Part shown: in pieces, positions 12,917-64,000 of the stretch
Position numbering within the stretch: the first letter of the stretch is position 1
Layout: each line of letters starts with the position of its first letter
Assembly (NCBI GenBank): GCA_029256085.1
Contig: JAQSYP010000002.1
Span: 264,426 to 328,425 of the forward strand
Length of the DNA: 64,000 nucleotides
Reading direction: 5' to 3'
Source: Bacillales bacterium
GTDB taxonomy: Bacteria; Bacillota; Bacilli; CAJFEE01
The notes under the pieces: generated by a model
The model's database searches: none
Told to the model about the DNA's origin: nothing
What the model saw: the letters and a program-made list of their open reading frames with translations, nothing else
Made by a program: the position numbers and the translations under genes

Positions 12917-13455
12917 TTACAGTGAGAAAATATTTATTAAAAAATGGCAAGGAAGTATCTATTAGATTTTCTATACCCTCTGATGCTGAAAATATAATTT
13001 CATATATTAATAGAGTTGGTGGAGAAAGTAACTATCTTACTTTTGGAAAAAATCAATTCCCGCTAACTGTTGAAGATGAAATTAAACATATAGACTCGCA
13101 AGCTCAAAAGGAAAATTGTTGCTCAATCATTGCTGTAGTTGCTGGAGAAGTTATAAGCTGCGCTAATGTTTCGGCTTCCGATAAGGATAGAATTAAGCAT
13201 ATCGGTACAGTAGGTATTTCCGTACGAAAAGATTTCTGGGGCGTTGGTGTTGGAAAACTTGTAATGCACGAACTGATAGATTGGGCTAGGGAAGGTGGCA
13301 TTCTTAAAAAATTATGTTTGAAAGTTAGAGAAGATAACGTTGCTGCAATAGATTTATATGAAAAATTAGGCTTTGTAACGGTCGGCCTTCTTGTAAATGA
13401 TTTTTATATAGACCAAAAATATTATAATTGTATTTTAATGGAATTATTTTTATAA
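12913..13455 (+). CDS. GNAT family N-acetyltransferase
   Basis: VGVGKLVMHELIDWAREGGILKKLCLKVREDNVAAIDLYEKLGF is a GNAT motif A/B region. Confidence 0.75.
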   Translation: MITVRKYLLKNGKEVSIRFSIPSDAENIISYINRVGGESNYLTFGKNQFPLTVEDEIKHIDSQAQKENCCSIIAVVAGEVISCANVSASDKDRIKHIGTVGISVRKDFWGVGVGKLVMHELIDWAREGGILKKLCLKVREDNVAAIDLYEKLGFVTVGLLVNDFYIDQKYYNCILMELFL

Positions 13456-13462
13456 AATTTTT

Positions 13463-13580
13463 TCATATTCCATAATTTCTGCACAATTATATTTTATATT
13501 AAGTACATGAAAACCTTTCAAACCTTAAAACCCTAACCTTTTTTCTGTGGACTACCCGAAAACCACAGATTTTTTTTTGT
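13463..13580. repeat. interspersed ~105-bp repeat, copy A (bcr-type / MITE-like element of the B. cereus group)
   Basis: Shares ATATTTTCTGCACAATTATRTTTTATATTWAGTACATGAAAACCTTTCAWRCCTTAAAACCCTAACCTTTTTCTGTGGA…CCACAG with 16329–16436, 19337–19453 and 21441–21558. Ends in an inverted repeat (CTGTGGA…CCACAG). Confidence 0.7.
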
Positions 13581-13591
13581 GTTTTTTTAAC

Positions 13592-13710
13592 TTATAATCC
13601 AAAGATTGAGGTTTATAATCCGAACTAGCTATTATTTAATCCGATATATGTGTTTTTTAATCCGAAATTTATTTTTTTAATCCAAACTCAAAGTTTTATA
13701 ATCCAAACAA
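13592..13710. repeat. phased array of six T(T/A)TAATCC(A/G)A motifs at ~20–22-bp spacing
   Basis: ttataatccaaa / ttataatccgaa / tttaatccgat / ttaatccgaaa / ttaatccaaac / tataatccaaac, seen directly in the sequence between two convergent gene ends. Confidence 0.6.
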
Positions 13711-13758
13711 AAAAATAGACCAAGTTTCTTATAAGGAAACCTGATCTATTTTTATTTA

Positions 13759-15876: not shown

Positions 15877-16319
15877 TGAAAATAATTAAATGGACTACGG
15901 TGTCTATAGTTCTAATATCTATATTATTTATGGCAGTAAAAGCACTTGAATATAATAATCTATTAAAACTAACTTATAACCAAAGAGATATGGAAGATTT
16001 GACTAAGGTTGAATATCAACTTAAAATTCCATCCAGCGAACCAGCAAGTTATACAGATGAACAAGTTTTGAATGATAAAGAGAATTTTACTAAGCTACAA
16101 GATATTTTGCAAAACATACGTTGGGAAAACAACTGGAAGTGTTGTGTCGACGGAGATGTAAGAGCAAACTTAACTTTTAAAAATAAAGAAAAGATACTTT
16201 ACCATATTAATTTTGAATCAGACGGAGCAACGATTGCTTCTTTCGAAAATAAGAAAAAAACGAAGTTCTATAAAATGGATGAAAAAAGTTCCGATCAATT
16301 GAAAAAAATTTTCAATTAG
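15876..16319 (+). CDS. hypothetical membrane-anchored protein
   Basis: ATG overlaps the upstream TAA (TAATG coupling). N-terminal TM (MKIIKWTTVSIVLISILFMAV). Confidence 0.4.
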   Translation: MKIIKWTTVSIVLISILFMAVKALEYNNLLKLTYNQRDMEDLTKVEYQLKIPSSEPASYTDEQVLNDKENFTKLQDILQNIRWENNWKCCVDGDVRANLTFKNKEKILYHINFESDGATIASFENKKKTKFYKMDEKSSDQLKKIFN

Positions 16320-16328
16320 AATCTTTTT

Positions 16329-16436
16329 TGCATATTTTCTGCACAATTATGTTTTATATTAAGTACATGAAAACCTTTCATACCTTAAAACCCTAACCTT
16401 TTTCTGTGGATTCTCGAAACCCACAGATTTTTTTGT
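16329..16436. repeat. interspersed ~105-bp repeat, copy B
   Basis: Over 90% identical to copies A, C and D. Confidence 0.7.
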
Positions 16437-16440
16437 TCTC

Positions 16441-16545
16441 ATTCAAATTAAGGAAATCTTCTTTATCCTCTTGTGCAAAAACAATTACCTTTTATCCACC
16501 TTTTGGCATTGGAGCTCCATTGACAATAATTTCTACCAGACGAAA
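16441..16545 (-). pseudogene. relic fragment paralogous to the 219-aa gene at 21567–22226
   Basis: Minus-strand translation LVEIIVNGAPMPKGG*KVIVFAQEDKEDFLNLN aligns with LVAVTFNGIPLSKVGEKVILFAGEDKEDFYNLN of the intact gene, with an in-frame stop. The first 20 nt (GAAATCTTCTTTATCCTCT) are identical at DNA level. Truncated where repeat copy B begins. Confidence 0.55.
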
Positions 16546-19144: not shown

Positions 19145-19336
19145 AAAATCACTCTCCCTATTATCCGTAACCTACAATTTTTCACTCTATCAATTGAAAC
19201 GTAAACGGTAACCAATAATTTCTATCTTAAATATCATCCAATGATTCTTTAAGAATAACTTGAGAAAGTAAAACCTTTCGTCTTTATCTATTATTCTTTC
19301 AAATTTTACCTCAATTTAAAAATTTTGATAAGGGAT

Positions 19337-19453
19337 TTTCCATATTTTCTGCACAATTATGTTTTATATTTAGTACATGAAAACCTTTCATACCTTAAAA
19401 CCCTAACCTTTTTCTGTGGATTCTCGAAACCCACAGTATTTTTTTTGCCTAAA
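19337..19453. repeat. interspersed ~105-bp repeat, copy C
   Basis: As copies A, B and D. Shares the extended 3' tail TATTTTTTTTGCCTAAA with copy D. Confidence 0.7.
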
Positions 19454-19490
19454 TTTGAAATAGTGCAAATAAATTTTGTCCGCACTACTT

Positions 19491-21412: not shown

Positions 21413-21440
21413 TTTTTGACCTCATAAAATTTTTATATGT

Positions 21441-21558
21441 TTTCCATATTTTCTGCACATTTATGTTTTATATTAAGTACATGAAAACCTTTCATGCCTT
21501 AAAACCCTAACCTTTTTCTGTGGATTCTCGAAACCACAGTATTTTTTTTGCCTAAAAT
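21441..21558. repeat. interspersed ~105-bp repeat, copy D
   Basis: As copies A–C. Confidence 0.7.
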
Positions 21559-21566
21559 CCACTTTT

Positions 21567-32895: not shown

Positions 32896-35082
32896 ATGGC
32901 AAAAAGTGTAGTAATAGCTGAGAAGCCTTCCGTTGCACGTGATATCGCAAATGTCCTTAAGTGTACGAGAAAAGGTAATGGTTTTTTAGAAGGGGATAAA
33001 TATATAGTAACTTGGGCACTAGGACATTTAGTTACCCTAGCTGATCCGGAAGCTTACGATAACAAATATAAAGCATGGAATTTAGAAGATCTTCCAATGC
33101 TTCCTGAAAATATGAAGCTAGTAGTAATGAAGCAAACAGGAAAGCAGTTCAATACTGTGAAGGCACAATTAAGTCGTAATGATGTAAATGAAATAATTGT
33201 AGCTACAGATGCAGGTAGAGAAGGAGAATTAGTTGCACGTTGGATTATTGACAAAGCAAAAGTACATAAACCGATAAAACGTCTATGGATTTCTTCTGTA
33301 ACTGATAAGGCTATTAAAGATGGATTCAATAACTTAAAACCAGGTAAAGCTTATGAAAATCTATATGCATCAGCGGTAGCTCGCTCTGAAGCTGACTGGT
33401 ATATAGGATTAAATGCTACTCGTGCTTTAACGACAAAATTCAATGCTCAATTAAACTGTGGCAGAGTGCAAACTCCAACAGTTGCCATGGTTGCAGCACG
33501 AGAAGATGAAATTAAAAGTTTTAAACCGCAAACATATTATGGCATTGAAGCCCAAACTGATCAAATCAAGTTAACTTGGCAGGATGCAAATGGGAATAGT
33601 CGTAGCTTCAATAAAGAAAAAGTTGCCGATATCGTAAACTCTATTGGTAGAAAAGATGCGACTGTTATCTCGGTTGACCGCAAGAAAAAGAAAACATTTG
33701 CACCAGCACTTTACGATTTAACCGAGTTGCAGCGTGACGCTAATAAAATCTTTGGGTATTCTGCTAAAGAAACATTAAATATTATGCAAAAATTGTACGA
33801 ACAGCATAAAGTTTTAACTTACCCGCGTACCGATTCACGATATTTGTCTTCTGATATAGTGGGCACAATTCCGGATAGACTTAAAGCTTGCGCTACTGGC
33901 GAATATCGATCGCTTGTTGGGAAAATTAGCAAGCCTATTAAAGCATCAAAATCATTCGTTGATGACAGCAAAGTCAGTGATCACCATGCCATCATTCCGA
34001 CTGAGGAATATGTTAATTTTTCTGCGTTCACTGATAAAGAACGTAAAATATATGATCTTGTTGTGAAAAGATTTTTATCTGTTTTATTGCCTGCTTTTGA
34101 ATACGAACAGTTAACAGTACAGGCAAAAATCGGTAACGAAAAGTTCATAGCAAAGGGTAAATCAGTAATTAATTACGGTTGGAAAGAAGTTTATCAAAAT
34201 CGGTTTGAGGATGAGGAAACTGACGATGTCAAAGAACAACTTCTGCCCCGTCTTAACAACGGAGATATCTTAAAGACTAAATTAATCGTGCAAACTTCAG
34301 GACAAACAAAGCCACCTGCACGTTTTACTGAAGCAACACTACTTTCGGCAATGGAAAATCCGACTAAATATATGGAAACAAATGATAAAAAGCTTGTAGA
34401 CATGTTAAAGTCAACAGGCGGATTAGGTACAGTAGCCACACGAGCAGATATCATTGATAAATTATTTAATTCTTTTTTATTAGAAAAACGTGGAAGTCAG
34501 GAAATTTTCATTACTTCAAAAGGGCGCCAACTTTTAGATTTAGTCCCTGAGGAATTAAAATCTCCAGCAACAACAGCCGAGTGGGAACAAAAGCTTGAAC
34601 TAATTGCTAAAGGTAAGCTGAAGAAAGATGTTTTCATTAACGAAGTAAAAAAACATACAAAAGAAATTGTCAGTGAAATCAAATCTAGCACTAAAAAGTA
34701 TAAGCACGACAACATCTCAACAAAGTCATGCCCAGACTGTGGTAAGGCAATGCTTGAGGTTAATAGTAAAAAAGGTAAAATGCTAGTTTGCCAAGACCGA
34801 GAATGTGGACATAGAAAAAATGTAGCTCGCGTGACAAATGCCCGTTGCCCACAATGTAAGAAGAAAATGGAGCTCCGTGGTGAAGGTGAAGGTCAAATAT
34901 TTTCATGTGTGTGTGGACACCGTGAAAAACTATCGGCATTCGAAGCAAGACGTAAGAAAGAATCTGGTGGCAAAATCGACAAACGAACTGTTCAAAATTA
35001 TTTAAAACAGCAAGAAAAGGAATCAGAACCAATTAATAACCCTTTCGCTGACTTATTAAAAGGGATGAAGTTTGATAAATAA
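32896..35082 (+). CDS. topB: DNA topoisomerase III
   Basis: 728 aa. TOPRIM N-terminus (SVVIAEKPSVARDIANVL…YIVTWALGHL), the active-site tyrosine region, and C-terminal Cys4 zinc ribbons (CPDCGK…CQDRECGH; CPQCKK…CVCGH). Confidence 0.9.
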   Translation: MAKSVVIAEKPSVARDIANVLKCTRKGNGFLEGDKYIVTWALGHLVTLADPEAYDNKYKAWNLEDLPMLPENMKLVVMKQTGKQFNTVKAQLSRNDVNEIIVATDAGREGELVARWIIDKAKVHKPIKRLWISSVTDKAIKDGFNNLKPGKAYENLYASAVARSEADWYIGLNATRALTTKFNAQLNCGRVQTPTVAMVAAREDEIKSFKPQTYYGIEAQTDQIKLTWQDANGNSRSFNKEKVADIVNSIGRKDATVISVDRKKKKTFAPALYDLTELQRDANKIFGYSAKETLNIMQKLYEQHKVLTYPRTDSRYLSSDIVGTIPDRLKACATGEYRSLVGKISKPIKASKSFVDDSKVSDHHAIIPTEEYVNFSAFTDKERKIYDLVVKRFLSVLLPAFEYEQLTVQAKIGNEKFIAKGKSVINYGWKEVYQNRFEDEETDDVKEQLLPRLNNGDILKTKLIVQTSGQTKPPARFTEATLLSAMENPTKYMETNDKKLVDMLKSTGGLGTVATRADIIDKLFNSFLLEKRGSQEIFITSKGRQLLDLVPEELKSPATTAEWEQKLELIAKGKLKKDVFINEVKKHTKEIVSEIKSSTKKYKHDNISTKSCPDCGKAMLEVNSKKGKMLVCQDRECGHRKNVARVTNARCPQCKKKMELRGEGEGQIFSCVCGHREKLSAFEARRKKESGGKIDKRTVQNYLKQQEKESEPINNPFADLLKGMKFDK

Positions 35083-35088
35083 AAAAAT

Positions 35089-35110
35089 GGTGAGTCGACA
35101 TTGACTCACC
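35089..35110. terminator. perfect 8-bp-stem hairpin GGTGAGTC-GACATT-GACTCACC (first copy)
   Basis: Seen in sequence. AAAAAAA on the 5' side gives a T-run on the minus strand. Confidence 0.5.
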
Positions 35111-35357
35111 AGGGTTGATGTTTTGGAATCTGCAAGACTCCTACGGGATCAGCGAGAAGCTACTTAAAAACTAAATTGATTCTTTGGATTGGAAAAATAG
35201 ATACTTTAATAAATCTGTGTTGATTGAAGCGAAGGTGATCGACTCCAGCGGGAACAGCACGAGCCGAAAATCCATTTTTGCTAGTGAAACTAGCAAAAAT
35301 TAGTTGAGGCCGTGCCCGCGGAAAGCGAGCACCGAAAGCGCAAATCAACAAAATAAT
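35111..35357. other. ~250-bp GC-richer block bounded by two identical hairpins; candidate structured ncRNA or mini-insertion
   Basis: Contains the perfect palindrome TTTTTGCTAGT-GAAA-ACTAGCAAAAA nested inside a longer-range pairing (GCGGG…GCACG with CGTGC.CCGC). No credible ORF. Confidence 0.3.
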
Positions 35358-35379
35358 GGTGAGTCGACATTGACTCACC
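35358..35379. terminator. identical second copy of the GGTGAGTCGACATTGACTCACC hairpin, with T-runs on both sides (bidirectional terminator)
   Basis: Seen in sequence. Followed by TTTTTT on the plus strand and preceded by AAAATAA. Confidence 0.6.
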
Positions 35380-35384
35380 ATTTT

Positions 35385-40221: not shown

Positions 40222-40256
40222 AGTGTCCCAATAGTTTTTATTTGGGACATTTTTTT
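40222..40256 (+). terminator. rho-independent terminator
   Basis: GTCCCAA-TAGTTTTTATT-TGGGAC hairpin followed by ATTTTTTTA. Confidence 0.6.
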
Positions 40257-40280
40257 ATTTTTAAAGATTTTTCGACAAGT

Positions 40281-40440
40281 CGGTTGATAATAATGCATAT
40301 TGGGTTGATAAAATTGCATTTTCGGTTGATAAAATTGCTATTTCGGTTGATAAAATAACTATTTCGGTTGATAAAAATGCTTATTCGGTTGTTGATAGAA
40401 GCGTCATTTCCGCCGATAGAACTATCATTTGCGTTCATAG
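40281..40440. repeat. tandem array of about seven ~21-bp repeats (consensus CGGTTGATAAAATTGCTATTT), the last three degenerate
   Basis: Seen in sequence. Lies inside listed ORF 40238..40618(-), where it translates to FINRNS(N/Y) heptads. Confidence 0.7.
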
Positions 40441-40614
40441 TACTAGTAGCATCACTGCTTGACTCAATCGACAATTGTTCTGACTCTAAAATATATATAA
40501 TTGCACCGTGAATCGGATTTTTTGCACCGCCTTTAATTAAAATTGCACCTCCTTGTCGAAAACTAAAAATCAAGAAAAAAAGCAAGACTCCTTTGATCTG
40601 AAGTTTGCTTTTTT

Positions 40615-42951
40615 TCACTCTTGAATTAAATATTCTGATGATATACCTTCCGAAAAGGTGGATGGCTCACCTACACTGTATAGATGCAAGTAATGCATTG
40701 CGCGAGTGCATGCTGTGTAGAACAACCTTCGAAGACTTTCATCACCGTATACTTCCGCCGATGCATTGTAAATTATAACTGCGTCAAACTCGATACCCTT
40801 AGCCAGATACGTTGGTATGACTACTACTCCTTGCTCGTACTCAGTTGAACCATTTTTAACAATTTTAATATCCTCGATCTTACTCAATGCTACGTATGCT
40901 TCAGCACACTCTTTAGCTGATTTGCAAATTACAGCTATAGTATTGTAATTACGCTCCTTTAAGTCATTAACTTTTGACATTATGCGTTGATGTAGTTCAT
41001 CACGAGTAGGCAGTTGCGTAAGCACAGGCACTTCGCCATCCCGTTCAAACGGAATTATTTGATCGCCGCCATTAATAAGATTTCGTGTGAATTCAACGAT
41101 AGGTTTTGTTGATCTATAGCTTCGATGCAATTTTATTGTTTTTGATTCATTAGCTCCGTACAAACCTTGAAGTATATTGAAGTCAACCATATCACTGCTA
41201 GTATGAGCAAATATCGCTTGGTTGAAATCACCAAGCACAGTCATGCCAGCTGAAGGAAATAACCGTTTTATAAATTCAAATTGAAATGGCGAGTAATCTT
41301 GAGCTTCGTCTACTAGTACATGTTTGATCGAAACATTCATTTGAAACCCTTGAATTAACTCTTTCAAAAGTAAAAACGGAGTTGTATCCTCATATAAAAG
41401 TTTGCCTTCTTCTAACATTTTAATTGTTAAAAGACAAATATTTTCCCATTCCACAGGGGTCTCGCCATTAATCCAACTTGGATCGTTAAAAAGTTGTTTA
41501 TAAATTCCAACAATGTTTATGAATCCTAGTTTTTGCACCCATTTTCGTATTGGCTTTAATTTTCTACGGACAACCATTCGACTAAGTACTTCAAATTCTT
41601 TATCATAATCATCGTGTGTTTTTTCAGTATAACTACCTTTTTTATGCAAGTATTTATAGGCCTTTTGATGATCATCCTTACTGAGGAATTGAATTTCTTC
41701 TTGTACCCACGGCTTACTCAGTTCACTTTTGTCTACTTCATCTATTTTCTCATTCAACCATTCTGTCAATTTATCTAGCCTATTATGAAATTTTAGTGTG
41801 GTATCGAAATTATAAAATCTATTAGTAATTTCTTTTGAAGAAACAATCCATTCTCCTCTAAATTTAATACCTTTAAAAAGCATACCTGATGATTCTAATG
41901 ACTGTCTGTAAGCTTTAATAATTTCGAAAAATTGAAGAGATGCTTTGAACTTGATGTTTGCAATCCTAGTCTGATAGTCAGGATCATCATTTGCTGTTAA
42001 TACATATTCCATTTGCTCATAGTTATCTTCAATATTAAATGTTTTGCCTAATCGATGGGTCAAATATCGTTGGAACGTCACCTGTTGCATATTTTCCTCG
42101 CCAAGTTCAGGTAACACTCTGGAAACGTAATTATTAAACATTGCATTTGGCGAAAAAAGAATAATTTGATCCGCTCTCAGCCATTCTCGGTATTTATAAA
42201 GCAAGTAGGCAATTCGTTGAAGAGCTGCCGATGTTTTTCCACTACCAGCTGCACCTTGAACAATGAGCAATTTTTTCTTATCATACCTAATTATTTGATT
42301 TTGTTCTTGTTGAATACTAGCTACGATACTGTGAAGATGTTTATCTGTTCGTTTTCCTAGCACATGCTGTAGTATCTCATCTCCGATTGTAAGACTTGTA
42401 TCAAATATCGATTCGATAAAACCGTTACGAATTATATATTGCCATTTTGTATCTAAAACTCCTGAAACTTTTCCCCCTGGGGTGTCATACTCCGCAGGTC
42501 CAGGTGCATAATCATAGTAAACGCTTGAGATCGGGGCACGCCAATCGTAAATTAGAAAATCCTCACCACTGCTATCTGTAAGTGTAGATACCCCAATATA
42601 AATACGTTCAACATCAGAAGTTCCTTCTTCAATGAAGTCAATCCGTCCGAAATACGGGATTTCCCGCATTCGTCTCAATGAGGATAACCGTTTCGTTGCT
42701 TGCATATGAGTACTTTGAGAAACCGACAAGGCTTGGGTCTGTTGTCGCAAGCTAATAATTGTCTCGAGATAATCATCAAAACTATCAGTATTTACTTTGA
42801 CTTCATCCCAAAAGTTTTTCCGTATATCGACCACATTATTTAGAGTTTGATCTGTTTCAACTTCAAACTTAATAATCTGGTCATTAATTATTTCTAAAAT
42901 ACGGTCTACACGATCTTGCTCCAATCGAAGCTGTTTATCCATGTCATGCAC
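40615..42951 (-). CDS. helD: RNA polymerase recycling motor ATPase HelD (UvrD-like helicase IV family)
   Basis: 778 aa. N-terminal coiled-coil domain, Walker A LLIVQGAAGSGKTSAALQRIAY, and UvrD-like motifs (VLVDEAQDYSPFQF; …YRS). Same length and architecture as B. subtilis HelD. Confidence 0.8.
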   Translation of the reverse strand: MHDMDKQLRLEQDRVDRILEIINDQIIKFEVETDQTLNNVVDIRKNFWDEVKVNTDSFDDYLETIISLRQQTQALSVSQSTHMQATKRLSSLRRMREIPYFGRIDFIEEGTSDVERIYIGVSTLTDSSGEDFLIYDWRAPISSVYYDYAPGPAEYDTPGGKVSGVLDTKWQYIIRNGFIESIFDTSLTIGDEILQHVLGKRTDKHLHSIVASIQQEQNQIIRYDKKKLLIVQGAAGSGKTSAALQRIAYLLYKYREWLRADQIILFSPNAMFNNYVSRVLPELGEENMQQVTFQRYLTHRLGKTFNIEDNYEQMEYVLTANDDPDYQTRIANIKFKASLQFFEIIKAYRQSLESSGMLFKGIKFRGEWIVSSKEITNRFYNFDTTLKFHNRLDKLTEWLNEKIDEVDKSELSKPWVQEEIQFLSKDDHQKAYKYLHKKGSYTEKTHDDYDKEFEVLSRMVVRRKLKPIRKWVQKLGFINIVGIYKQLFNDPSWINGETPVEWENICLLTIKMLEEGKLLYEDTTPFLLLKELIQGFQMNVSIKHVLVDEAQDYSPFQFEFIKRLFPSAGMTVLGDFNQAIFAHTSSDMVDFNILQGLYGANESKTIKLHRSYRSTKPIVEFTRNLINGGDQIIPFERDGEVPVLTQLPTRDELHQRIMSKVNDLKERNYNTIAVICKSAKECAEAYVALSKIEDIKIVKNGSTEYEQGVVVIPTYLAKGIEFDAVIIYNASAEVYGDESLRRLFYTACTRAMHYLHLYSVGEPSTFSEGISSEYLIQE

Positions 42952-45313: not shown

Positions 45314-45799
45314 TCAGACTATTAAGTCATTTTCTGATTTTATATCAATAGCTTCTTGTAAAAGCCTTTGAAGAACGGCAGCAAAAACTGCAATTACCAT
45401 TGAAGCAAAAATAGGTACCATTCCCATTATTATGAGACCAGGGGCATCGTCTAACTCAGCAACCATATAAACAAACGGAAGAATTAACACGTACAAAGCG
45501 CTGATTGTTACTGCACACATTTTAATATTCTTCAAACCTTTAACAGACAATTCAGAGAAAGCTTGGTTGTTATCAATATAACTTAAAAGTTTAAACGACT
45601 GAATCAATGCAATAAAAAATGGAACGATCGCTAAATACATACCTATTACAATCGGATATAGCATATAAGCATAATCTGGGTTAACAGGATTTTTAGCTAA
45701 CCACGGTATCCCATATAAACCTAAAGCCAGAACTGGTAATCCAATAAGAATTACAGCTAATTTTAAAAATAGAGTCGAACCATGTTTCATTAGAAACAC
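45314..45799 (-). CDS. DUF2975 family membrane protein (usual upstream partner of YozG-like HTH)
   Basis: 161 aa with four TM segments. Stop overlaps the regulator's start. Confidence 0.6.
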   Translation of the reverse strand: MFLMKHGSTLFLKLAVILIGLPVLALGLYGIPWLAKNPVNPDYAYMLYPIVIGMYLAIVPFFIALIQSFKLLSYIDNNQAFSELSVKGLKNIKMCAVTISALYVLILPFVYMVAELDDAPGLIIMGMVPIFASMVIAVFAAVLQRLLQEAIDIKSENDLIV

Positions 45800-45892
45800 C
45801 TCACTTAATTATTGTTAATTTAATTTTACTATATTATTTATCGTTTCGCAATAAATTATTACCTTTTTTTAATATATTTTTGCCGTTATAAA

Positions 45893-45942
45893 AATAAACA
45901 CCATGTACTTATACAAAATAAACACCATGTACTTATACAAAA
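45893..45942. repeat. perfect 25-bp tandem duplication (AAATAAACACCATGTACTTATACAA ×2)
   Basis: Seen in sequence. Lies in the promoter region upstream (on the minus strand) of the DUF2975–HTH pair. Confidence 0.7.
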
Positions 45943-46036
45943 TAAAAAACATTCCCATTCCATAGAAATGCTCTTTAAAACTTAAATTTATATTATACTA
46001 TTTGGTCATTAAAAAATATAATATTTCTAAAAATTA

Positions 46037-49595: not shown

Positions 49596-49800
49596 CTACT
49601 CTAGGTATTTTTATAATTTATCTCTATACTTATTTGTTTTTATTGATTTTTCAGCTACCATACTTATTTAAACCCTTTTGATAGTTTAATAAATTTCATG
49701 ATGTTTTTTTATTAAGATAGTATTATAATAACAATACTTTAAATTTCCAATATTTGTTATATTAATATTAAAGTAAAATAATTTTTATGGGGAGATTTAA

Positions 49801-50649: not shown

Positions 50650-51219
50650 TTATTGATGTTTGCTTAACCACTCACTCTTTATACTTGCATAAATAGCCAT
50701 ATCACAAAACTCTTTCTTGTTACGTATATATGCTTGTCTAAATGTTCCTTCGTGCTTCATTCCACTTTTAACCATTACTTTACCTGAAGCAACGTTATTT
50801 ATATCGTGTTTTGCAGTAATTCTATTAAATCCTATTTCTGAAAATAAATAATTAATAACCCCTTGAAGGGTTTCGCACATGATACCCTTTCCCCAATAAG
50901 TTTTTGACATACAAAACCCTAACTCACAAGATAAATTTTGTTCGTCTAAATTGAATACTCTAATTCCACCAATAACTTCTCTAGTTTCATTAAGTTCAAT
51001 AGCCCAATGGTATACGTTAGCTTCCTTATACTCGTTTACCCACTGTACGATAAATCCTTTAGTAACCTCAATGTCACTATGTGGATCCCAAGTTAAGAAT
51101 CTTGTAACTTCACTATCATTTGCCCAATTTTTAAACATATCATTAGCGTCAGTCATTTCAAACCTTCTAAGTATGAGTCTATCTGTATTGATTGTATTTG
51201 TTCCTTGATGTGATAACAC
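50650..51219 (-). CDS. GNAT family N-acetyltransferase (RimJ/RimL-like)
   Basis: TDRLILRRFEMTDANDMFKNWANDSEVTRFL N-terminus and WGKGIMCETLQGVINYLF motif. Confidence 0.75.
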   Translation of the reverse strand: MLSHQGTNTINTDRLILRRFEMTDANDMFKNWANDSEVTRFLTWDPHSDIEVTKGFIVQWVNEYKEANVYHWAIELNETREVIGGIRVFNLDEQNLSCELGFCMSKTYWGKGIMCETLQGVINYLFSEIGFNRITAKHDINNVASGKVMVKSGMKHEGTFRQAYIRNKKEFCDMAIYASIKSEWLSKHQ

Positions 51220-51330
51220 AATAAATCCCCCTAGTAAAAAAATCTAATATTGTTTAATTCTACATTTCAGATTCTGAATCTTTTGTAGCTAAACTAGTAG
51301 GCCACTTAATCAGAAAGTGTTGTTTTTTAA

Positions 51331-51545
51331 TTTGGATTAAATATTTCGAAAAGTTAGTGGCATATTACGAAAAGTTAGTGATATATTGCCAAAAGTTAGT
51401 GATATATTGCCAAAAGTTAGTGATATATTGCCAAAAGTTAGTGATATATTGCCAAAAGTTAATGATAAATCGGTAAAAGTTAATGATATGACAAAAGGCA
51501 CCGAGACTAAGTCTTGATGCATTTTATGAGTTGAGCCAAATGAAT
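51331..51545. repeat. composite element 1: TTTGGATTAAATATT leader, seven ~21-bp tandem repeats (AAAAGTTAGTGATATATTGCC), a conserved ~40-nt hairpin segment, and a GTTGAG…CTCAAC-TTTTTT terminator hairpin
   Basis: Seen in sequence. A related element lies at 52092–52245. Confidence 0.7.
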
Positions 51546-51548
51546 ACC

Positions 51549-51941
51549 TCAACTTTTTTCTTTAGTTATTTTCTTTTTGTATTTGTGTGTTTTTGCAGAT
51601 TTTATAGCTACCTTACTTACTTTAAACCCTTTTGATAGTTTAATAATTTTTAACATTTTACCTAGCTTCCCTATTTTAACAAAACCCGATAAAAATGCTA
51701 AATGACTTGCATTTAATGATATGACTATTGCTAAAATGCCAATAATGTTATCTTTTAGAAATTCCTTTTTATCTTTTGAAGCGTAGCCTATAATAATCAA
51801 CTCTACTAAAAAGATTAATAAGATTGCGTTGGTTAATACTTCTGAATATATACTTTTAATAAAAATTGATAGCACTAAATAGATTGCTAAAATAAAAGCT
51901 GCTATATTATATACTTTATAAAATTTGTCTACTATTCTCAC
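51549..51941 (-). CDS. small membrane protein with lysine-rich C-terminal tail
   Basis: 130 aa with three TM segments and a KSAKTHKYKKKITKEKS tail. The 3' end coding IKLSKGFK is also found as a DNA fragment upstream of aadK. Confidence 0.4.
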   Translation of the reverse strand: MRIVDKFYKVYNIAAFILAIYLVLSIFIKSIYSEVLTNAILLIFLVELIIIGYASKDKKEFLKDNIIGILAIVISLNASHLAFLSGFVKIGKLGKMLKIIKLSKGFKVSKVAIKSAKTHKYKKKITKEKS

Positions 51942-52091
51942 ATTAATATCTCCTAAACCCTACTTTACTTAAGCTTAACTCAACTTTAATTAATTTAATA
52001 TAAAAATGGCATAAAAAAAGTGAGGTTCAGAATGTAAACAAACCTATGCAATCTAGTCTGCCTACAGCCTATTTGAAGTTTAAGAAAGTGG

Positions 52092-52245
52092 TTTGGATTA
52101 AATATTGTGAAAAGTAGATGGTATATTGTTAAAAGTAGATGATAAAGTTATTAATATTACTATTTAAAAATGACAAAAGACACCGAGGCCAAGTCTCGAT
52201 GCCTTTTGTCGACAATTTGAAGTGAGGTTTTACCCTCACTTGAAA
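52092..52245. repeat. composite element 2 (paralog of 51331–51545): same leader, two AAAAGTAGATGGTATATTG-type repeats, the conserved GACAAAAGACACCGAGGCCAAGTCTCGATGCCTTTTGTC hairpin, and a GTGAGG…CCTCAC hairpin
   Basis: Seen in sequence. Confidence 0.7.
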
Positions 52246-52251
52246 CATCTT

Positions 52252-52779
<528 letters not shown>

Positions 52780-52799
52780 TTAGCTCCCTATATTTAAGA

Positions 52800-54077
52800 T
52801 TAAGTTATTTTTCTACGAGACCATATCACCACTGGAATTAGTAATAAAGATAAAATTCCGCCAGCGAGTGATAAAGTTAGATAACTAGATCCTGCTACAA
52901 TTAATCCCGACAGCGCACTACCAGCAGCCCCTGATAACGCAATCATTACATCCACTTTACCTTGAGTCTTAGCTCTTGTGGAAGTTGTAGTAGAATCAAC
53001 AATAAGTGCCGTCCCACTGATCAAACCAAAATTCCAGCCTAACCCTAGCAATGAAAGTGCAATTACTAACATAACAAAGGAATCTCCTGGTGCAAATGCC
53101 GCAATAAGTCCTGCCAAAAGTAATGTAGTACCAGATGCAATACTCATCGCTGTACGCCCTAGCTTATCAACTAGTACACCAGTAACTAGTGAAGGAAGAT
53201 ACATTGCACCTATATGGAAACCAATAACCATTCCAACTGCACCAAGATTGTGTCCATGATGCATCATATGAACCGGAGTCATTGTCATAATCGCTACCAT
53301 TACAATTTGGGTAACAACCATGATCGTTGCACCAACTATTATTCCTCTTTTGTTTTCTATTTGTTCAGTTGTCCCCAAAATTCCTTTGTCAGTTGTAACC
53401 TGGTTGCTAGTTTCTAGCGATCTTGCTATTACTAAAGGATCTGGGCGAAGCATTATAAAAAGAACAACACATGCTAAAATATAAGCTGCTGCCGCTAAAA
53501 TGAACGGACCTGCAAGAGATGGTACACCTATTGACTTAGAAAAGTTTCCCATCACATTCACCATGTTTGGACCAGCAACGGCACCAAAAGTTGTAAAAAC
53601 CATAGCAATACTAATAGCAGTCGCTCGCTGTTTACTATTTGCTAAATCGGTACCGGCATACCGAGCTTGTAAGTTTGTTGCAGACCCAGCACCATAAAAA
53701 AGTAGAGAAGCAAATAACAGTGAGACACTATTAATTATCGCTGCGATTATAACTCCAATCGCCCCAATTCCACCAATCATAAAACCTGTTGATAAACCTG
53801 TACGACGACCATACGCTTGTGACAGTCTCCCAACTAATAATGCAGCACCTGCTGACCCCAAAGTTAATAAGGCTGAAGGTATTCCAGCATACGCATCCGT
53901 TCCAAGCATTTGCCGAGCAAGAAGAGCACCGACGGTAACTCCAGCGGCAAGTCCTGCACCACCAAAAATTTGTGAGATACTTACAACAATTAATGTGCGT
54001 TTGTATAAATTTTTTAGTCTTTCAGTTGACCAAACCTCTGAATGTGTCTCTGATACTCTTATCCGCTCGAGTTGCAT
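52800..54077 (-). CDS. MFS transporter
   Basis: 425 aa, 12 TM segments, LVGRLSQAYGRR MFS motif. Confidence 0.8.
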   Translation of the reverse strand: MQLERIRVSETHSEVWSTERLKNLYKRTLIVVSISQIFGGAGLAAGVTVGALLARQMLGTDAYAGIPSALLTLGSAGAALLVGRLSQAYGRRTGLSTGFMIGGIGAIGVIIAAIINSVSLLFASLLFYGAGSATNLQARYAGTDLANSKQRATAISIAMVFTTFGAVAGPNMVNVMGNFSKSIGVPSLAGPFILAAAAYILACVVLFIMLRPDPLVIARSLETSNQVTTDKGILGTTEQIENKRGIIVGATIMVVTQIVMVAIMTMTPVHMMHHGHNLGAVGMVIGFHIGAMYLPSLVTGVLVDKLGRTAMSIASGTTLLLAGLIAAFAPGDSFVMLVIALSLLGLGWNFGLISGTALIVDSTTTSTRAKTQGKVDVMIALSGAAGSALSGLIVAGSSYLTLSLAGGILSLLLIPVVIWSRRKIT

Positions 54078-54245
54078 GCTTCAACCAACTTTCCGAATCT
54101 TTAACTAGATTTGAACTATCATAACACGCACAAAAAATCCATACAATATTAAATTGCATGGAGAGCATTCGACAAAATATACCTGATTTTCTGTATAGGA
54201 TAAAGGATTACTTGATAGGACAACATATTTGATGGGTGATATTAT

Positions 54246-59636: not shown

Positions 59637-59727
59637 ATGGTACGTAAAATACTCTAAATTCGTTAAAGTCAGTTAATAACAAGGAACCTACTTAAAATTT
59701 TGGAGTGCAATGGAGGTTGAGTTAATC

Positions 59728-60063
59728 ATGGCAAAATATGAAACTACAATTATTGGTCAATTCGATGAAGTAGTTAGTCATTTGGAAAATGATATTAGTA
59801 ATAGTGGAATGAGTATGAAATTAGTTGATGAAAGCAACTACACTATTGGAGATACAAACGTTGCTGTTCGAGTTTATGATAAATATTTTATGAGAAATGG
59901 AAACAGAGCAAGTTTAAGTCTTACTGTTGTAGGTAATAACAGCAATATTTTCATTTCAGCAATTGGTGCTGGCGGTGGACAAGGTATTATTTTTAACTTT
60001 AGTCTTGGTGCTGAAGATAATATGGTGGAAATCGTGCAAAAAAGTATAGAACAAATGGAGTAA
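59728..60063 (+). CDS. small conserved hypothetical protein, paralog 1 (~111 aa; MAKYETTIIGQFDEV…AIGAGGGQGIIFNFSLGAED)
   Basis: ATG 9 nt after GGAGG. About 95% nucleotide identity to 62989–63324. Confidence 0.55.
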   Translation: MAKYETTIIGQFDEVVSHLENDISNSGMSMKLVDESNYTIGDTNVAVRVYDKYFMRNGNRASLSLTVVGNNSNIFISAIGAGGGQGIIFNFSLGAEDNMVEIVQKSIEQME

Positions 60064-60069
60064 TACTAT

Positions 60070-60106
60070 TTGTTGAAACAGTCACGATATAAAATCGTGA
60101 CTGTTT
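60070..60106. terminator. bidirectional terminator
   Basis: AAACAGTCACGAT-ATAAAA-TCGTGACTGTTTTT hairpin. Confidence 0.65.
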
Positions 60107-60110
60107 TTGA

Positions 60111-60920
60111 CTAATTATTTTTTATACTCTGATTAATATTTTTTAACTCATTTCCAACTATTCTTTTTATTTTTTCATTACCTATAACTCCACTATGAAA
60201 TGTATTTGTATCTATCCAATAAGTTTGCCAGAAGGTAATTCCGTTATTAAGTTCAATTTCTAGGAAAATGCGTTTACCTTCCAACTTACGTTCATCAATT
60301 AATGTTTGGACATCTCTAAGTTTTAGTTTATACCATTCTTCTAAAAACATATTTTTACTAAATTGAGAAAATGTATGAATTCTACTACCATCATCAGTGC
60401 TTTGTATATAAATTTTATTAACAAAGTTTTTCATAGGAAACAGCTCATCAGCAGTTTTTGCTTTCATGTTATTATATACGACATATACTTGATTATTGGC
60501 ACTTACAATTAAGTTCGAAGGGTAACCACGCACCTCATAAATTGGTGTATTTATATCTAAGTATGTTGCATCACCATTTTTCATTTTATGGTCACTACAT
60601 GCATAGCCTGCCATAGTATAACTTACTTTCCCAATTTCATTGCCATTTTCCACTTGAATGGTTGTATCACCTCGATATTTATTACTTTCATATCTAATAT
60701 CATTAATCTTAAGTGTATCCACCCAACTAATTTCCGCATCAGGACATTCTTTTCTATCTTTATATAAATGGTCTAAGTCCTTATTAATTTGTTCAGATTC
60801 CTTGTATTCTTCACCTTCAGAAACTACATCATAAAAATAGTTTCTAATCGTAATGGATGAAGTATAAATTAATATGATAACTATTATAGATATTAGGATT
60901 TTAATTTTACTAATATTCAT
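60111..60920 (-). CDS. signal-anchored hypothetical protein, paralog 1 (269 aa)
   Basis: N-terminal TM (ISKIKILISIIVIILIYTS). Paralog of 63377–>64000. Confidence 0.5.
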   Translation of the reverse strand: MNISKIKILISIIVIILIYTSSITIRNYFYDVVSEGEEYKESEQINKDLDHLYKDRKECPDAEISWVDTLKINDIRYESNKYRGDTTIQVENGNEIGKVSYTMAGYACSDHKMKNGDATYLDINTPIYEVRGYPSNLIVSANNQVYVVYNNMKAKTADELFPMKNFVNKIYIQSTDDGSRIHTFSQFSKNMFLEEWYKLKLRDVQTLIDERKLEGKRIFLEIELNNGITFWQTYWIDTNTFHSGVIGNEKIKRIVGNELKNINQSIKNN

Positions 60921-62775: not shown

Positions 62776-62988
62776 ACAAAAATACACTTTATCACAGTGT
62801 ATTTAAGTGCAATTTCAAGTGCCGTAAAACAAAATGGAATTGTGAATATGGCTAAACCAGAATTCGATTTAAATTTCCTTAGTTCAAGTGAGAGAACGAA
62901 AAAGTAACTAAAGAACAAATTGACCGAGAATAAACAAAATTAACTAAGAAAGCTACTTAAAAACGAAGCGCTGGAGGTTGTGTTAATC

Positions 62989-63324
62989 ATGGCAAAATAT
63001 GAAACTACAATTATTGGTCAATTTGATGAAGTAGTTAGTCATTTGGAAAACGATATTAGTAATAGTGGAATGAGTATGAAATTAGTTGATGAAAGTAACT
63101 ACACTATTGGAGATACTAGCATAGCAGTTCGAGTTTATGATAAATATTTTATGCGAAATGGAAACAGAGCAAGTTTGAGTCTTACTGTTGTAGGTAATAA
63201 CAGCAATATTTTTATATCAGCAATTGGTGCTGGCGGCGGGCAAGGTATCATTTTTAACTTTAGCCTTGGTGCTGAAGATGATATGGTGGCAATTGTGCAA
63301 AAAAGTATAGTACAAATAGAATAA
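62989..63324 (+). CDS. small conserved hypothetical protein, paralog 2
   Basis: Near-identical to 59728–60063. Confidence 0.55.
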   Translation: MAKYETTIIGQFDEVVSHLENDISNSGMSMKLVDESNYTIGDTSIAVRVYDKYFMRNGNRASLSLTVVGNNSNIFISAIGAGGGQGIIFNFSLGAEDDMVAIVQKSIVQIE

Positions 63325-63338
63325 TATTATTGTTAAAA

Positions 63339-63370
63339 CAGTCACGATACAACACCGTGACTGTTTTTTT
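63339..63370. terminator. bidirectional terminator
   Basis: AAACAGTCACGAT-ACAACAC-CGTGACTGTTTTTTT hairpin. Confidence 0.65.
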
Positions 63371-63376
63371 GCGAAC

Positions 63377-64000
63377 TTATGGTTTTTTATTACCCTGTTT
63401 AATATTTTTCAACTCATTTTCAATAATTCTTTTTATGTTTTTATTACCAATAACTCCGTTGTGAAATGTATTTGTATCTATCCAATAAGTTTGCCCGAAA
63501 GTAATTCCGTTATTTAGTTCAATTTCTAAAAAAATACGTTCACCTTCCAACTTACGTTCATCAATTACTGTTTGAACATCTCTAAGTTTTAGTTTATACC
63601 ATTCTTCTAAAAACATATTTTTATTAATTTGAGAAAATGTATGAATTCTACTACCATCATCAGTGCTTTGTATATAAATTTTATTAACTAAATTTTTCAG
63701 AGGTAATAGTTCTTCAGCAGTTTTTGCTTTCATGTTACTATATACTACATATACTTGATTATTGGCACTTACAATAAAGTTTGAAGGGTAACCACGGACT
63801 TCATAAATTGGTGTATCGATATCTAAAAATGTTGCATCACCATTTTTCATTTTGTGGTCACTACATGCATAGCCTGCCATAGTATAACTTACTTTCCCGA
63901 TTTCATTGCCATTTTCCACTTGGATGTTTGTATTACTTCGAGAAAAAATAATTTCATATCTAATATCATTAATCTTAAGTGCATCCACCCAACTAATCTC
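63377..64000 (-). CDS. signal-anchored hypothetical protein, paralog 2 (C-terminal part; N-terminus beyond window end)
   Basis: About 90% aa identity to the protein at 60111–60920 over the visible 203 aa. Confidence 0.5.
   Translation of the reverse strand, partial: EISWVDALKINDIRYEIIFSRSNTNIQVENGNEIGKVSYTMAGYACSDHKMKNGDATFLDIDTPIYEVRGYPSNFIVSANNQVYVVYSNMKAKTAEELLPLKNLVNKIYIQSTDDGSRIHTFSQINKNMFLEEWYKLKLRDVQTVIDERKLEGERIFLEIELNNGITFGQTYWIDTNTFHNGVIGNKNIKRIIENELKNIKQGNKKP

Follow-up and report, generated by a model that had tools for sequence, protein, structure and literature searches.

The window considered here, a stretch of 64,000 nt from the metagenome-assembled genome (MAG) of an uncultured Bacillales bacterium, contains two intergenic elements, which lie on either side of a gene for a lysine-tailed membrane protein and which are paralogous copies of one module. 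This module consists of a AGAAAGTG box, a conserved leader, an array of tandem 21-bp repeats and a 39-nt hairpin, without the terminal stem-loops that were assigned to it in a preliminary description of the locus. The hairpin is a predicted bidirectional intrinsic terminator, the duplication appears to be older than the split from a sister genome, and the arrays, as judged from their sequence, are a further example of a published but unexplained class of 20-21-nt Bacillus repeats and not a new kind of element. Taken jointly, this account of anatomy, origin and class membership is very probably correct. The best explanation overall, i.e., a duplicated terminator-plus-array module with the array as DNA platform, has in our judgment an even chance of being right, and the DNA-platform mechanism of the array, taken for itself, is proposed tentatively, with a chance slightly below even. 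The preliminary description had looked to the B. cereus group for the origin of this DNA, which does not agree with its source, a MAG of about 30% GC; the window is identical to the JGI metagenome contig Ga0456364_0000041, which has a length of 475 kb.

Element 1 extends from window position 51312 to 51528 and element 2 from 52083 to 52210, and both are 72-77% identical to each other, confirming the proposed paralogy of the two loci with their shared leader, array and hairpin. The leader TTTGGATTAAATATT is an exact 15-mer, which occurs only twice in the window, at 51331 (element 1, 51331-51345, plus strand) and at 52092, as was described. The shared similarity also includes the AGAAAGTG box 2-11 nt left of the leader, which was read from the sequence, which forms the left edge of element 1 (51312-51319, plus strand) and which recurs in element 2, both in the window and in the sister genome. 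The gap between box and leader measures about 11 nt in element 1 and in the sister copy, while element 2 of the window has a deletion at this place; here, box and leader together occupy 52083-52106 (plus strand) and are exactly kept in the sister genome. The leader carries the core TTYGGATTAWA of another repeat array of the window, array A, introduced below. As all seven matches of this core in the window (0.76 expected) fall either into array A or into the two leaders, the leader is a degenerate outermost repeat unit bearing the array A signal.

The array of element 1 (51349-51489, plus strand) is composed of seven 21-bp units of the type AAAAGTTAGTGATATATTGCC, as defined by Tandem Repeats Finder (period 21, 7.1 copies, 91% matches, 51341-51489) and by a table of the units. 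The array of element 2 (52110-52151, plus strand) has two 21-bp units, AAAAGTAGATGGTATATTGTT and AAAAGTAGATGATAAAGTTAT (Tandem Repeats Finder: period 21, 1.9 copies, 52102-52141), compared to five in the sister genome. The repeats of both elements belong to one family, AAAAGTTAGTGATATATTG. The tandem repeats of the preliminary description are thereby confirmed in their period, which is 21 at both loci, and in its correspondence to two helical turns, and they have to be corrected in their uniformity: at locus 1 four identical central units are accompanied by three diverged units at the edges instead of seven identical ones, and at locus 2 one unit is as quoted and the other one is diverged. A contig of the Logan assembly is broken within the array of element 1. 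Both loci are intergenic, the open reading frames (ORFs) across them are purely mechanical and lack a ribosome-binding site, and the JGI annotation has no gene there; element 2 and array A are closed in all reading frames. For the two elements and array A, a reading of the 21-bp repeats as coding for 7-aa repeats was rejected, since no ribosome-binding site precedes the minus-strand ORF of 71 aa that covers element 1, stop codons interrupt locus 2 and array A has no ORF. Likewise, a structured RNA encoded by the array is unsupported by folding, the fold z-score of the array (z=-1.45) being not significant. A comparison by eye with DnaA, Spo0A, Fur/ARG and MraZ boxes, RTP Ter sites, sigma-54 promoters and extended -10 elements gave likenesses that were partial or inconsistent across the units, and these candidates were discarded.

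The hairpins are located at 51490-51528 in element 1, where an A-run, a GC-rich stem and a T-run follow each other (degenerate pattern and fold), and at 52172-52210 in element 2, where a minus-strand stem of 16 bp is followed by AUUUUUAAAU (terminator scan and fold). A degenerate 36-nt pattern of the hairpin has two matches in the window compared to 0.00 expected, so that the conserved segment of about 40 nt described before stands; its end was misquoted for locus 1, which reads TTTTATG and not TTTTGTC. The hairpin, GACAAAAG...CTTTTGTC, has a GC-rich stem, which is flanked by AAAAG on one side and by CTTTT on the other side. In all three known copies the fold is more stable on the minus or gene-sense strand: for element 1, including the neighboring stem-loop, -22.7 kcal/mol on the minus versus -17.2 kcal/mol on the plus strand; for element 2, -39 versus -32.2 kcal/mol; and for the sister genome, -30.4 kcal/mol on the gene-sense versus -22.3 kcal/mol on the antisense strand. 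Two positions of the conserved hairpin that are mismatched on the plus strand form G-U pairs on the minus strand. The fold z-scores of both copies of the window range from -3.0 to -8.2. A terminator consensus scan flagged 52210-52172 on the minus strand (16 pairs, tail ATTTTTAAAT) and, on the plus strand of both loci, the inner stem with its T-rich tail. The hairpin is therefore predicted to be a bidirectional intrinsic terminator, because it unites an A-run, a GC-rich stem and a T-run. It resembles bidirectional Rho-independent terminators in its GC-rich stem-loop with a 5' A-run and a 3' T-run, in its position just past a stop codon and in its tandem arrangement with a first terminator. Unlike in ordinary terminators of this type, the hairpin is duplicated inside a repeat-bearing module, and the sister genome has the same A/T-rich outer stem with a rewritten apical half (8 of 15 nt).

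The terminal stem-loops had been described as a fourth module shared by both loci. The comparison with the sister genome shows instead that each one belongs to the minus-strand gene upstream of it. At locus 1, the stem-loop GTTGAG...CTCAAC (51528-51555, minus strand) overlaps with the stop codon of the membrane ORF, and in the sister genome the same hairpin, with a T-run behind it on the gene strand, is found at the end of both copies of this ORF. For this reason it is predicted to be the private terminator of the membrane ORF, outside of the paralogous element. The six T at 51554-51559 of the plus strand are the complement of the K-E-K-S tail codons of this ORF. At locus 2, the stem-loop AAGTGAGG...CCTCACTT (52220-52241, minus strand) folds and is 100% conserved in the sister genome together with the 3' end of a paiA-like GNAT acetyltransferase gene (52252-52773). 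It most probably represents the first terminator of this gene and lies outside of the paralogous element as well.

The sister genome is a second MAG (JGI Ga0456365_0000456; NCBI GCA_029239855.1; its sequence is referred to as L092), which contains an orthologue of the paiA-like GNAT with 90% identity and which is 89-92% identical to the window in DNA across syntenic blocks. There, the MFS gene, paiA, element 2 and the membrane ORF are kept as one contiguous block. At the sister copy of element 2, the stem-loop that comes first behind paiA shows 100% conservation; the leader, the AGAAAGTG box and the outer stem of the hairpin (GACAAAAGGCAT / GTGTCTTTTGTC) are conserved too. The array is expanded to five units of the type AAAAGTTTATGATATATTGTT (5.0 copies, L092 10628-10733), giving copy numbers of 7, 2 and 5 for the three known arrays. 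In the hairpin apex 8 of 15 nt are changed (L092 10574-10588 compared to window 52184-52198). The sequences bordering this apex are identical between the sisters, for about 70 nt on one side and for 24 nt on the opposite one, and template switching or a small conversion tract might account for such a clustered change in a quasi-palindromic apex. Across paralogues and orthologue, the unit length, the core AAAAGT...TGATA, the end motif and the outer hairpin stem persist; copy number, spacer and hairpin apex do not.

Element 1 has no orthologue at the junction of membrane ORF and GNAT gene in the sister, where a 179-aa GNAT gene is located on the opposite strand; the homology picks up again at window position 51291. 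The duplication of the elements is older than the split from the sister genome, because elements 1 and 2 are 72-77% identical and a relic of the membrane ORF (see below) is 81% identical to its source, compared to 89-92% identity between the sister sequences. All six units of array A are retained in the sister genome. In its NCBI assembly (L096 ~4090 compared to L095 11005-11060), a stretch of 56 bp is missing, so that array A lacks units 5-6 and the adjacent terminator hairpin lacks one of its arms. The breakpoints of this loss share a TGG microhomology, and the loss may reflect strain variation or an assembly collapse.

Beyond this pair of genomes the module was not recovered. Two adjacent copies were found in the 64-kb window with its flanks of about 13 kb, the flanks themselves having no further copy, and one copy was found in about 39 kb of the sister genome. 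The hairpin-core pattern has no match in 185,579 species-representative genomes; one viral and four metagenome matches were obtained, of which four of the five were inspected, had unrelated flanks and are due to chance. BLAST of the region against plasmids and phages gave no match, and 80 Bacillaceae loci fetched via the neighboring MFS gene contained neither synteny nor a homologue of the elements. A comparison with Rfam, which had been suggested for the conserved segment, returned no family: the whole window has no match at the gathering threshold, and at permissive E-values the region 51200-52300 has only noise (E>3).

A period of 21 bp is not restricted to the two elements. In a lag-autocorrelation scan of the window four arrays were found at lag 21, namely at 13.6 kb, at 40.3 kb and at the two element loci, compared to none or one at every other lag from 9 to 39. 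Counting the two element loci as a single event, a coincidence of at least three of six independent arrays at one lag has a probability of at most 0.02. In array A (13593-13715, minus strand), six units with the core TTYGGATTAWA and variable spacers follow each other at distances of 21, 20, 21, 21 and 21 bp; this array lies between two convergent terminators. Array B (40277-40400, plus strand) has six 21-bp units with the core TTCGGTTGATAAAA and variable spacers and lies directly past a plus-strand terminator (fold z=-6.9). In both arrays the cores of 12-14 nt are conserved while the spacers are scrambled (Fisher's test of core versus spacer conservation: array A, p=3e-5; array B, p=4e-5). All four arrays of the window thus adjoin a predicted intrinsic terminator. 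Array B is overlapped by a 126-aa ORF on the minus strand (40238-40618), which starts in a GTGA overlap with the stop codon of a gene for a 778-aa UvrD-like helicase. The N-terminus of this ORF resembles a signal peptide, and array B is translated in it into FINRNSx heptads; it might be a real gene with a repeat tail or a mechanical ORF across a non-coding array. The sole strong array of the window with another period is a 24-bp tandem repeat of TTATACAAAATAAACACCATGTAC (45886-45946, 2.6 copies, 97% matches), which is placed just upstream of a DUF2975 membrane gene (45314-45799, minus strand) and may be an operator.

Applied to 1.6 Mb from 80 other Bacillaceae, the same scan yielded six arrays at lag 21 and five at lag 20, which is the preference seen in the window. 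Of these 11 arrays the majority appears to be non-coding, and in several of them variable spacers separate 3-9 conserved cores. Intergenic arrays with 4-9 units at 20-21-bp spacing were observed at L037 11339-11460, L049 11280-11440, L032 21025-21230 and L057 16465-16590, the hosts being Bacillus sp. J37, Neobacillus sp. DY30, Bacillus yapensis and Gracilibacillus xinjiangensis. Each of these four arrays has its own conserved core of 9-13 nt, and several of the cores show a TCG/CCG...GATA-like theme that resembles the arrays of the window.

In the preliminary description it was stated that the repeats match no family that can be named. This has to be revised, as the arrays fit a class of constant-size, variable-sequence repeats that was described by Subirana and Messeguer in 176 Bacillus genomes (PMC8161180). 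In this survey, which used a search threshold of at least four units, the tandem repeats reported are non-coding and variable in sequence and have a constant size of 52 nt or of 20-21 nt; a genome can harbor several families of the same length, the sequence is species-specific and each repeat carries a short characteristic signal (PMC8161180). A partial conservation of presence and length from strain to strain was shown for the 52-nt class in B. coagulans strains (PMC8161180). It was noted that 20-21 nt correspond to two helical turns, and the function was left unexplained by the authors, who suggested either a protein polymerising along the DNA or transcription into small RNAs; terminators, promoters and intergenic placement go unmentioned (PMC8161180).

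Six of the seven traits of this class are found in the present arrays. The unit length is 21 at both loci, and both loci are non-coding. With respect to the number of units, locus 1 has seven, locus 2 has only two and its sister orthologue has five. Several families coexist, i.e., array A with TTYGGATTAWA, array B with TTCGGTTGATAAAA and the element family AAAAGTTAGTGATATATTG, all of them with period 21. The sequence is species-specific in that the elements were found only in the sister MAG among the collections searched (genomes, metagenomes, viral sequences, plasmids and phages). Conservation is partial, since element 2 has two units compared to five, element 1 is missing at the sister junction and array A has two units fewer in the NCBI sister assembly. 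As a shared signal TTYGG together with GATWA is present in arrays A and B and in the leaders, while the element units keep the TGATA part only, all of this within 64 kb of genome. Two features set the window apart from the published class: all four arrays adjoin terminators, two of them having been duplicated along with one, and the density of three arrays (of at least four units) per 64 kb far exceeds the approximately 7 per Mb in '21-nt-rich' genomes, which may be a local effect.

According to the explanation that we prefer, each locus would be a copy of a lineage-specific intergenic module of about 130-215 bp with two working parts. The 39-nt hairpin would serve as a backup to the terminator that the upstream minus-strand gene has of its own, and antisense transcription would be stopped by it as well. 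The second part would be the tandem 21-bp array ending in the conserved TTTGGATTAAATATT / AGAAAGTG edge. Both copies would stem from an old local duplication in a rearrangement-prone region that also holds the ORF relic, and replication slippage would then have altered the copy number of the arrays to 7, 2 and 5 units. The array might act as DNA and not as RNA, serving as a platform that offers a sequence-specific protein one site per two turns, always on the same helix face. Its position past a terminator and ahead of the next promoter could allow it to insulate or to tune the gene downstream. The DNA-platform mechanism is suggested because of the contrast of cores and spacers in arrays A and B, the constancy of the period, the terminator-side placement in untranscribed pockets, the lack of RNA structure and the precedents of BvgA and LytTR. 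No plus-strand promoter able to transcribe the arrays was predicted.

Several observations weigh against this explanation. A candidate gene for the binding protein was sought in the window and in about 10 kb on each side, and none was found. The units of element 2 differ between the sisters in number and in sequence, with only AAAAGT...TGATA persisting, and this drift is unlike the expectation for a tightly constrained operator. Array A is about 10% diverged from its sister copy, with changes at 4 of 54 core compared to 8 of 72 spacer positions, which is compatible with neutrality. Element 1 is dispensable at the sister junction. Finally, the hairpin is known in two copies only, so that the pairing of terminator and array may be an accident of one duplication.

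A serious alternative, although a less probable one, is that the arrays are a neutral, slippage-prone minisatellite, which is tolerated in untranscribed DNA past a terminator, the hairpins being the sole working parts and the paralogy being a relic of segmental duplication. The four identical central units of element 1 indicate recent slippage, the copy number changes from 7 to 2 to 5 with turnover of the unit sequence, element 1 is missing from the sister junction, array A is partly deleted in the NCBI sister assembly and diverges from its sister copy about as much as the genome average, and other segmental duplications exist in the window. Neutral decay should however hit all positions alike, and yet arrays A and B keep their cores of 12-14 nt while the spacers are scrambled (p about 3e-5). 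Moreover, the period of 20-21 bp is fixed in unrelated arrays and in other Bacillaceae, the same size constraint was seen across genomes in the published survey (PMC8161180), and the core TTYGGATTAWA is common to array A and both leaders. The modular layout with conserved ends and a variable number of inner units would also suit a mobile mosaic repeat that inserted after terminators, comparable to the pneumococcal BOX element (boxA, n x boxB, boxC), to miniature inverted-repeat transposable elements or to REP/BIME, which is the least probable of the accounts considered. The presence of element 1 in the window and its lack at the orthologous sister junction, as well as another dispersed intergenic repeat in the window (a 110-121-nt family with four copies), point in this direction. 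However, the 64 kb and their flanks of about 13 kb yielded just two copies and the approximately 39 kb of the sister a single one. The elements lack terminal inverted repeats, the junction of element 1 shows no target-site duplication, and the window has no transposase gene. Furthermore, no matches exist in the 185,579 species-representative genomes and none beyond chance in JGI metagenomes, viral contigs, plasmids and phages, and the element 1 site of the sister is not empty but filled by a different gene.

Two other alternatives assign a regulatory or transcribed function to the repeats. That the units are operators for a LytTR-type or another oligomerising activator of an adjacent promoter, with 9-bp repeats plus 12 bp adding up to the 21-bp period, is very improbable. 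AAAGTTAGT and AAAGTTAAT with their 12-bp spacers fit this geometry, and the arrangement of 9+12, which falls within the spacer range of 11-13 bp for such operators, is found in all units. The LytTR consensus reportedly given by Nikolskaya and Galperin in 2002 is [TA][AC][CA]GTTN[AG][TG]; AAAGTTAGT and AAAGTTAAT fit it, TCGGTTGAT of array B agrees with it in 8 of its 9 positions, exactly two such repeats are present at locus 2 and the downstream minus-strand promoters have no recognisable -35 element. On the other hand, a 9-mer this degenerate has an estimated chance of roughly 2-3% per 21-bp unit, six or seven copies are atypical, and the units of locus 2 (AAAGTAGAT) and of the sister (AAAGTTTAT) drift off the consensus. 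LytTR operators would be expected to face a -35/-10 promoter from a distance of about 4-11 bp. The repeats point to the hairpins and not to a promoter, there is no plus-strand -10/-35 pair after them and the hairpin starts right past the last unit. For the minus-strand genes the orientation is wrong and a distance of at least about 80 bp separates the end of the repeats from the likely -10 element downstream; a LytTR gene was found neither in the window nor in about 10 kb on each side.

Still less expected is a small plus-strand RNA gene, or a transcribed repeat RNA acting as antisense RNA or protein sponge, for which the hairpins would provide the 3' end. Locus 1 had been read in the preliminary description as a terminated non-coding transcript of the plus strand, and indeed its hairpin is followed by T6 on this strand, the plus-strand inner stem of each locus resembles a terminator together with its UUUU tail, pairing at two stem positions that differ between the loci is kept via G-U on the plus strand only, and transcription was raised as a possible role by Subirana and Messeguer (PMC8161180). 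This reading is disfavored because the minus-strand fold is more stable, in all three copies of the hairpin, and because promoter prediction gave nothing on the plus strand within or ahead of the two elements. In addition, T6 is coding sequence of the lysine tail, the terminal hairpin of locus 2 has no T-run on the plus strand, Rfam has no match, the array is unstructured as RNA and the overlap with neighboring genes amounts to just a few nucleotides.

The proposed module with its DNA platform can be compared to known phased arrays. At the Bordetella ptx promoter six BvgA dimers bind with a spacing of 22 bp on one face of the helix (PMC7250471), and LytTR sites consist of two 9-bp direct repeats, which are mostly 12 bp apart and located upstream of the -35 element (PMC6193735). 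The arrays of the window are similar in that putative binding sites recur every two helical turns on one DNA face, up to six of them, and in that individually weak sites would act together. In contrast, the BvgA and LytTR arrays adjoin a -35 element and have a known regulator, whereas the arrays of the window have no adjoining promoter and a copy number that is unstable between close relatives. With BOX, REP/BIME, bcr and STAR the module shares the intergenic, modular organization with conserved ends, variable inner tandem units and hairpin potential near the 3' ends of genes. These families comprise tens to hundreds of dispersed copies and are common within a species group. The module differs from them by having two adjacent paralogues, no inverted termini and no match in the collections searched.

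Plasmid iterons such as those of the R6K gamma origin, which has seven 22-bp repeats, likewise combine five to seven direct repeats, each about 21-22 bp long, with adjoining AT-rich DNA. Here, the repeats are chromosomal, no rep, par or mobile-element gene is nearby and several differing arrays are present in 64 kb. An origin from plasmid or phage iterons was rejected, since Pfam scans revealed only GNATs, transporters and housekeeping genes and no plasmid or phage similarity was found. CRISPR was excluded too, in agreement with the preliminary description: CRISPR repeats measure at least about 23 nt and alternate with unique spacers of similar length, whereas the 21-mers are contiguous, arrays A and B have cores of about 12 nt with 9-nt spacers, and the Pfam scans contain no cas genes.

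Going beyond the favored explanation, arrays with a TTYGG...GATWA-type core beside terminators could be landing pads for a putative Bacillales protein that polymerises along a single face of the helix, two turns at a time, and the module could be a boundary device; we regard this extension as doubtful. If it were true, the hairpin would halt RNA polymerase and the protein-coated array would insulate the next promoter or anchor the nucleoid, and this would provide a first function and a genomic logic for the enigmatic 20-21-nt repeats across Bacillaceae. The locus itself is mostly ordinary, consisting of two terminators and a variable-number repeat, and its value lies in being a small and clean test case for the unexplained repeats of fixed length and variable sequence that are present in many Bacillus-type genomes. 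It offers an old paralogue pair together with an orthologue, arrays in which the cores are clearly conserved and the spacers are not, and a consistent terminator-side position that was undiscussed in the published survey.

The gene between the two elements encodes a 130-aa membrane protein with a lysine-rich tail (51549-51941, minus strand; taken from the ORF list) and has an AGGAG ribosome-binding site 8 nt upstream of its GTG start codon. A search with the protein in 5.8 billion sequences returned only itself, and its DNA is 89% conserved in the sister genome; the ORF is lineage-restricted. In Pfam only a weak, non-significant match to Ion_trans (E=0.15, S1-S4 region) was obtained. The layout of the protein together with this match suggests a stand-alone voltage-sensor-like domain whose last helix has basic residues at every third position. 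The recurrence of a piece of the ORF's 3' end near aadK, noticed in the preliminary description, is real and longer than given there: 84 bp at 49614-49696 (minus strand) are 81% identical to 51567-51650 and represent the relic of a second membrane-ORF 3' end. The sister genome explains this relic, because it keeps a second copy of the ORF, longer but partial and apparently decayed (L092 14850-15183), beside the same 269-aa neighbor gene. Apart from the relic, the window contains no paralogue of the membrane ORF. The local rearrangement of the region that was proposed from the recurring piece is thus supported. A segmental duplication (59711-60417 / 62972-63683, 92-94% identity), which comprises a DUF6054 gene, a terminator hairpin and part of a 269-aa membrane gene, is further evidence of local duplication in this region of the chromosome.

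The neighborhood is made up of small accessory genes, i.e., GNAT acetyltransferases, aadK, MFS and SMR pumps and a nitroreductase, and Pfam scans found no transposase, replication, partition, cas or LytTR genes in it. In the block at 52252-54147, the MFS gene has a GC content of 40-44%, compared to about 30% around it, and is 71-87% identical (best segment) to orthologues of Neobacillus, Bacillus and Lysinibacillus; the paiA-like GNAT is about 75-80% identical to proteins of Bacillaceae and Paenibacillus. In the sister the MFS-paiA pair, element 2 and the membrane ORF are found in a different left-hand context, beside a DDE transposase. This suggests that the MFS/paiA block was recently acquired.

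Two additional repeats of the window were observed. The intergenic element of 110-121 nt has four copies on the plus strand (13454-13585, 16314-16445, 19324-19455 and 21428-21560), which are 72-90% identical to a reference copy and each of which ends in a CTGTGG...CCACAG hairpin with 8-9 T on the plus strand. Two of the copies begin at the stop codon of a plus-strand gene, the element has no Rfam match, and the sister genome conserves it. Its appearance is that of a dispersed module of the 3' untranslated region or terminator, or of a small-RNA gene. Moreover, a 37-nt sequence with the palindrome TGGTGAGTC...GACTCACCA is present in two copies (35075-35111 and 35344-35380), which are 92% identical and 269 bp apart, in the gap between a topoisomerase gene and an operon for an ABC-3 metal transporter.

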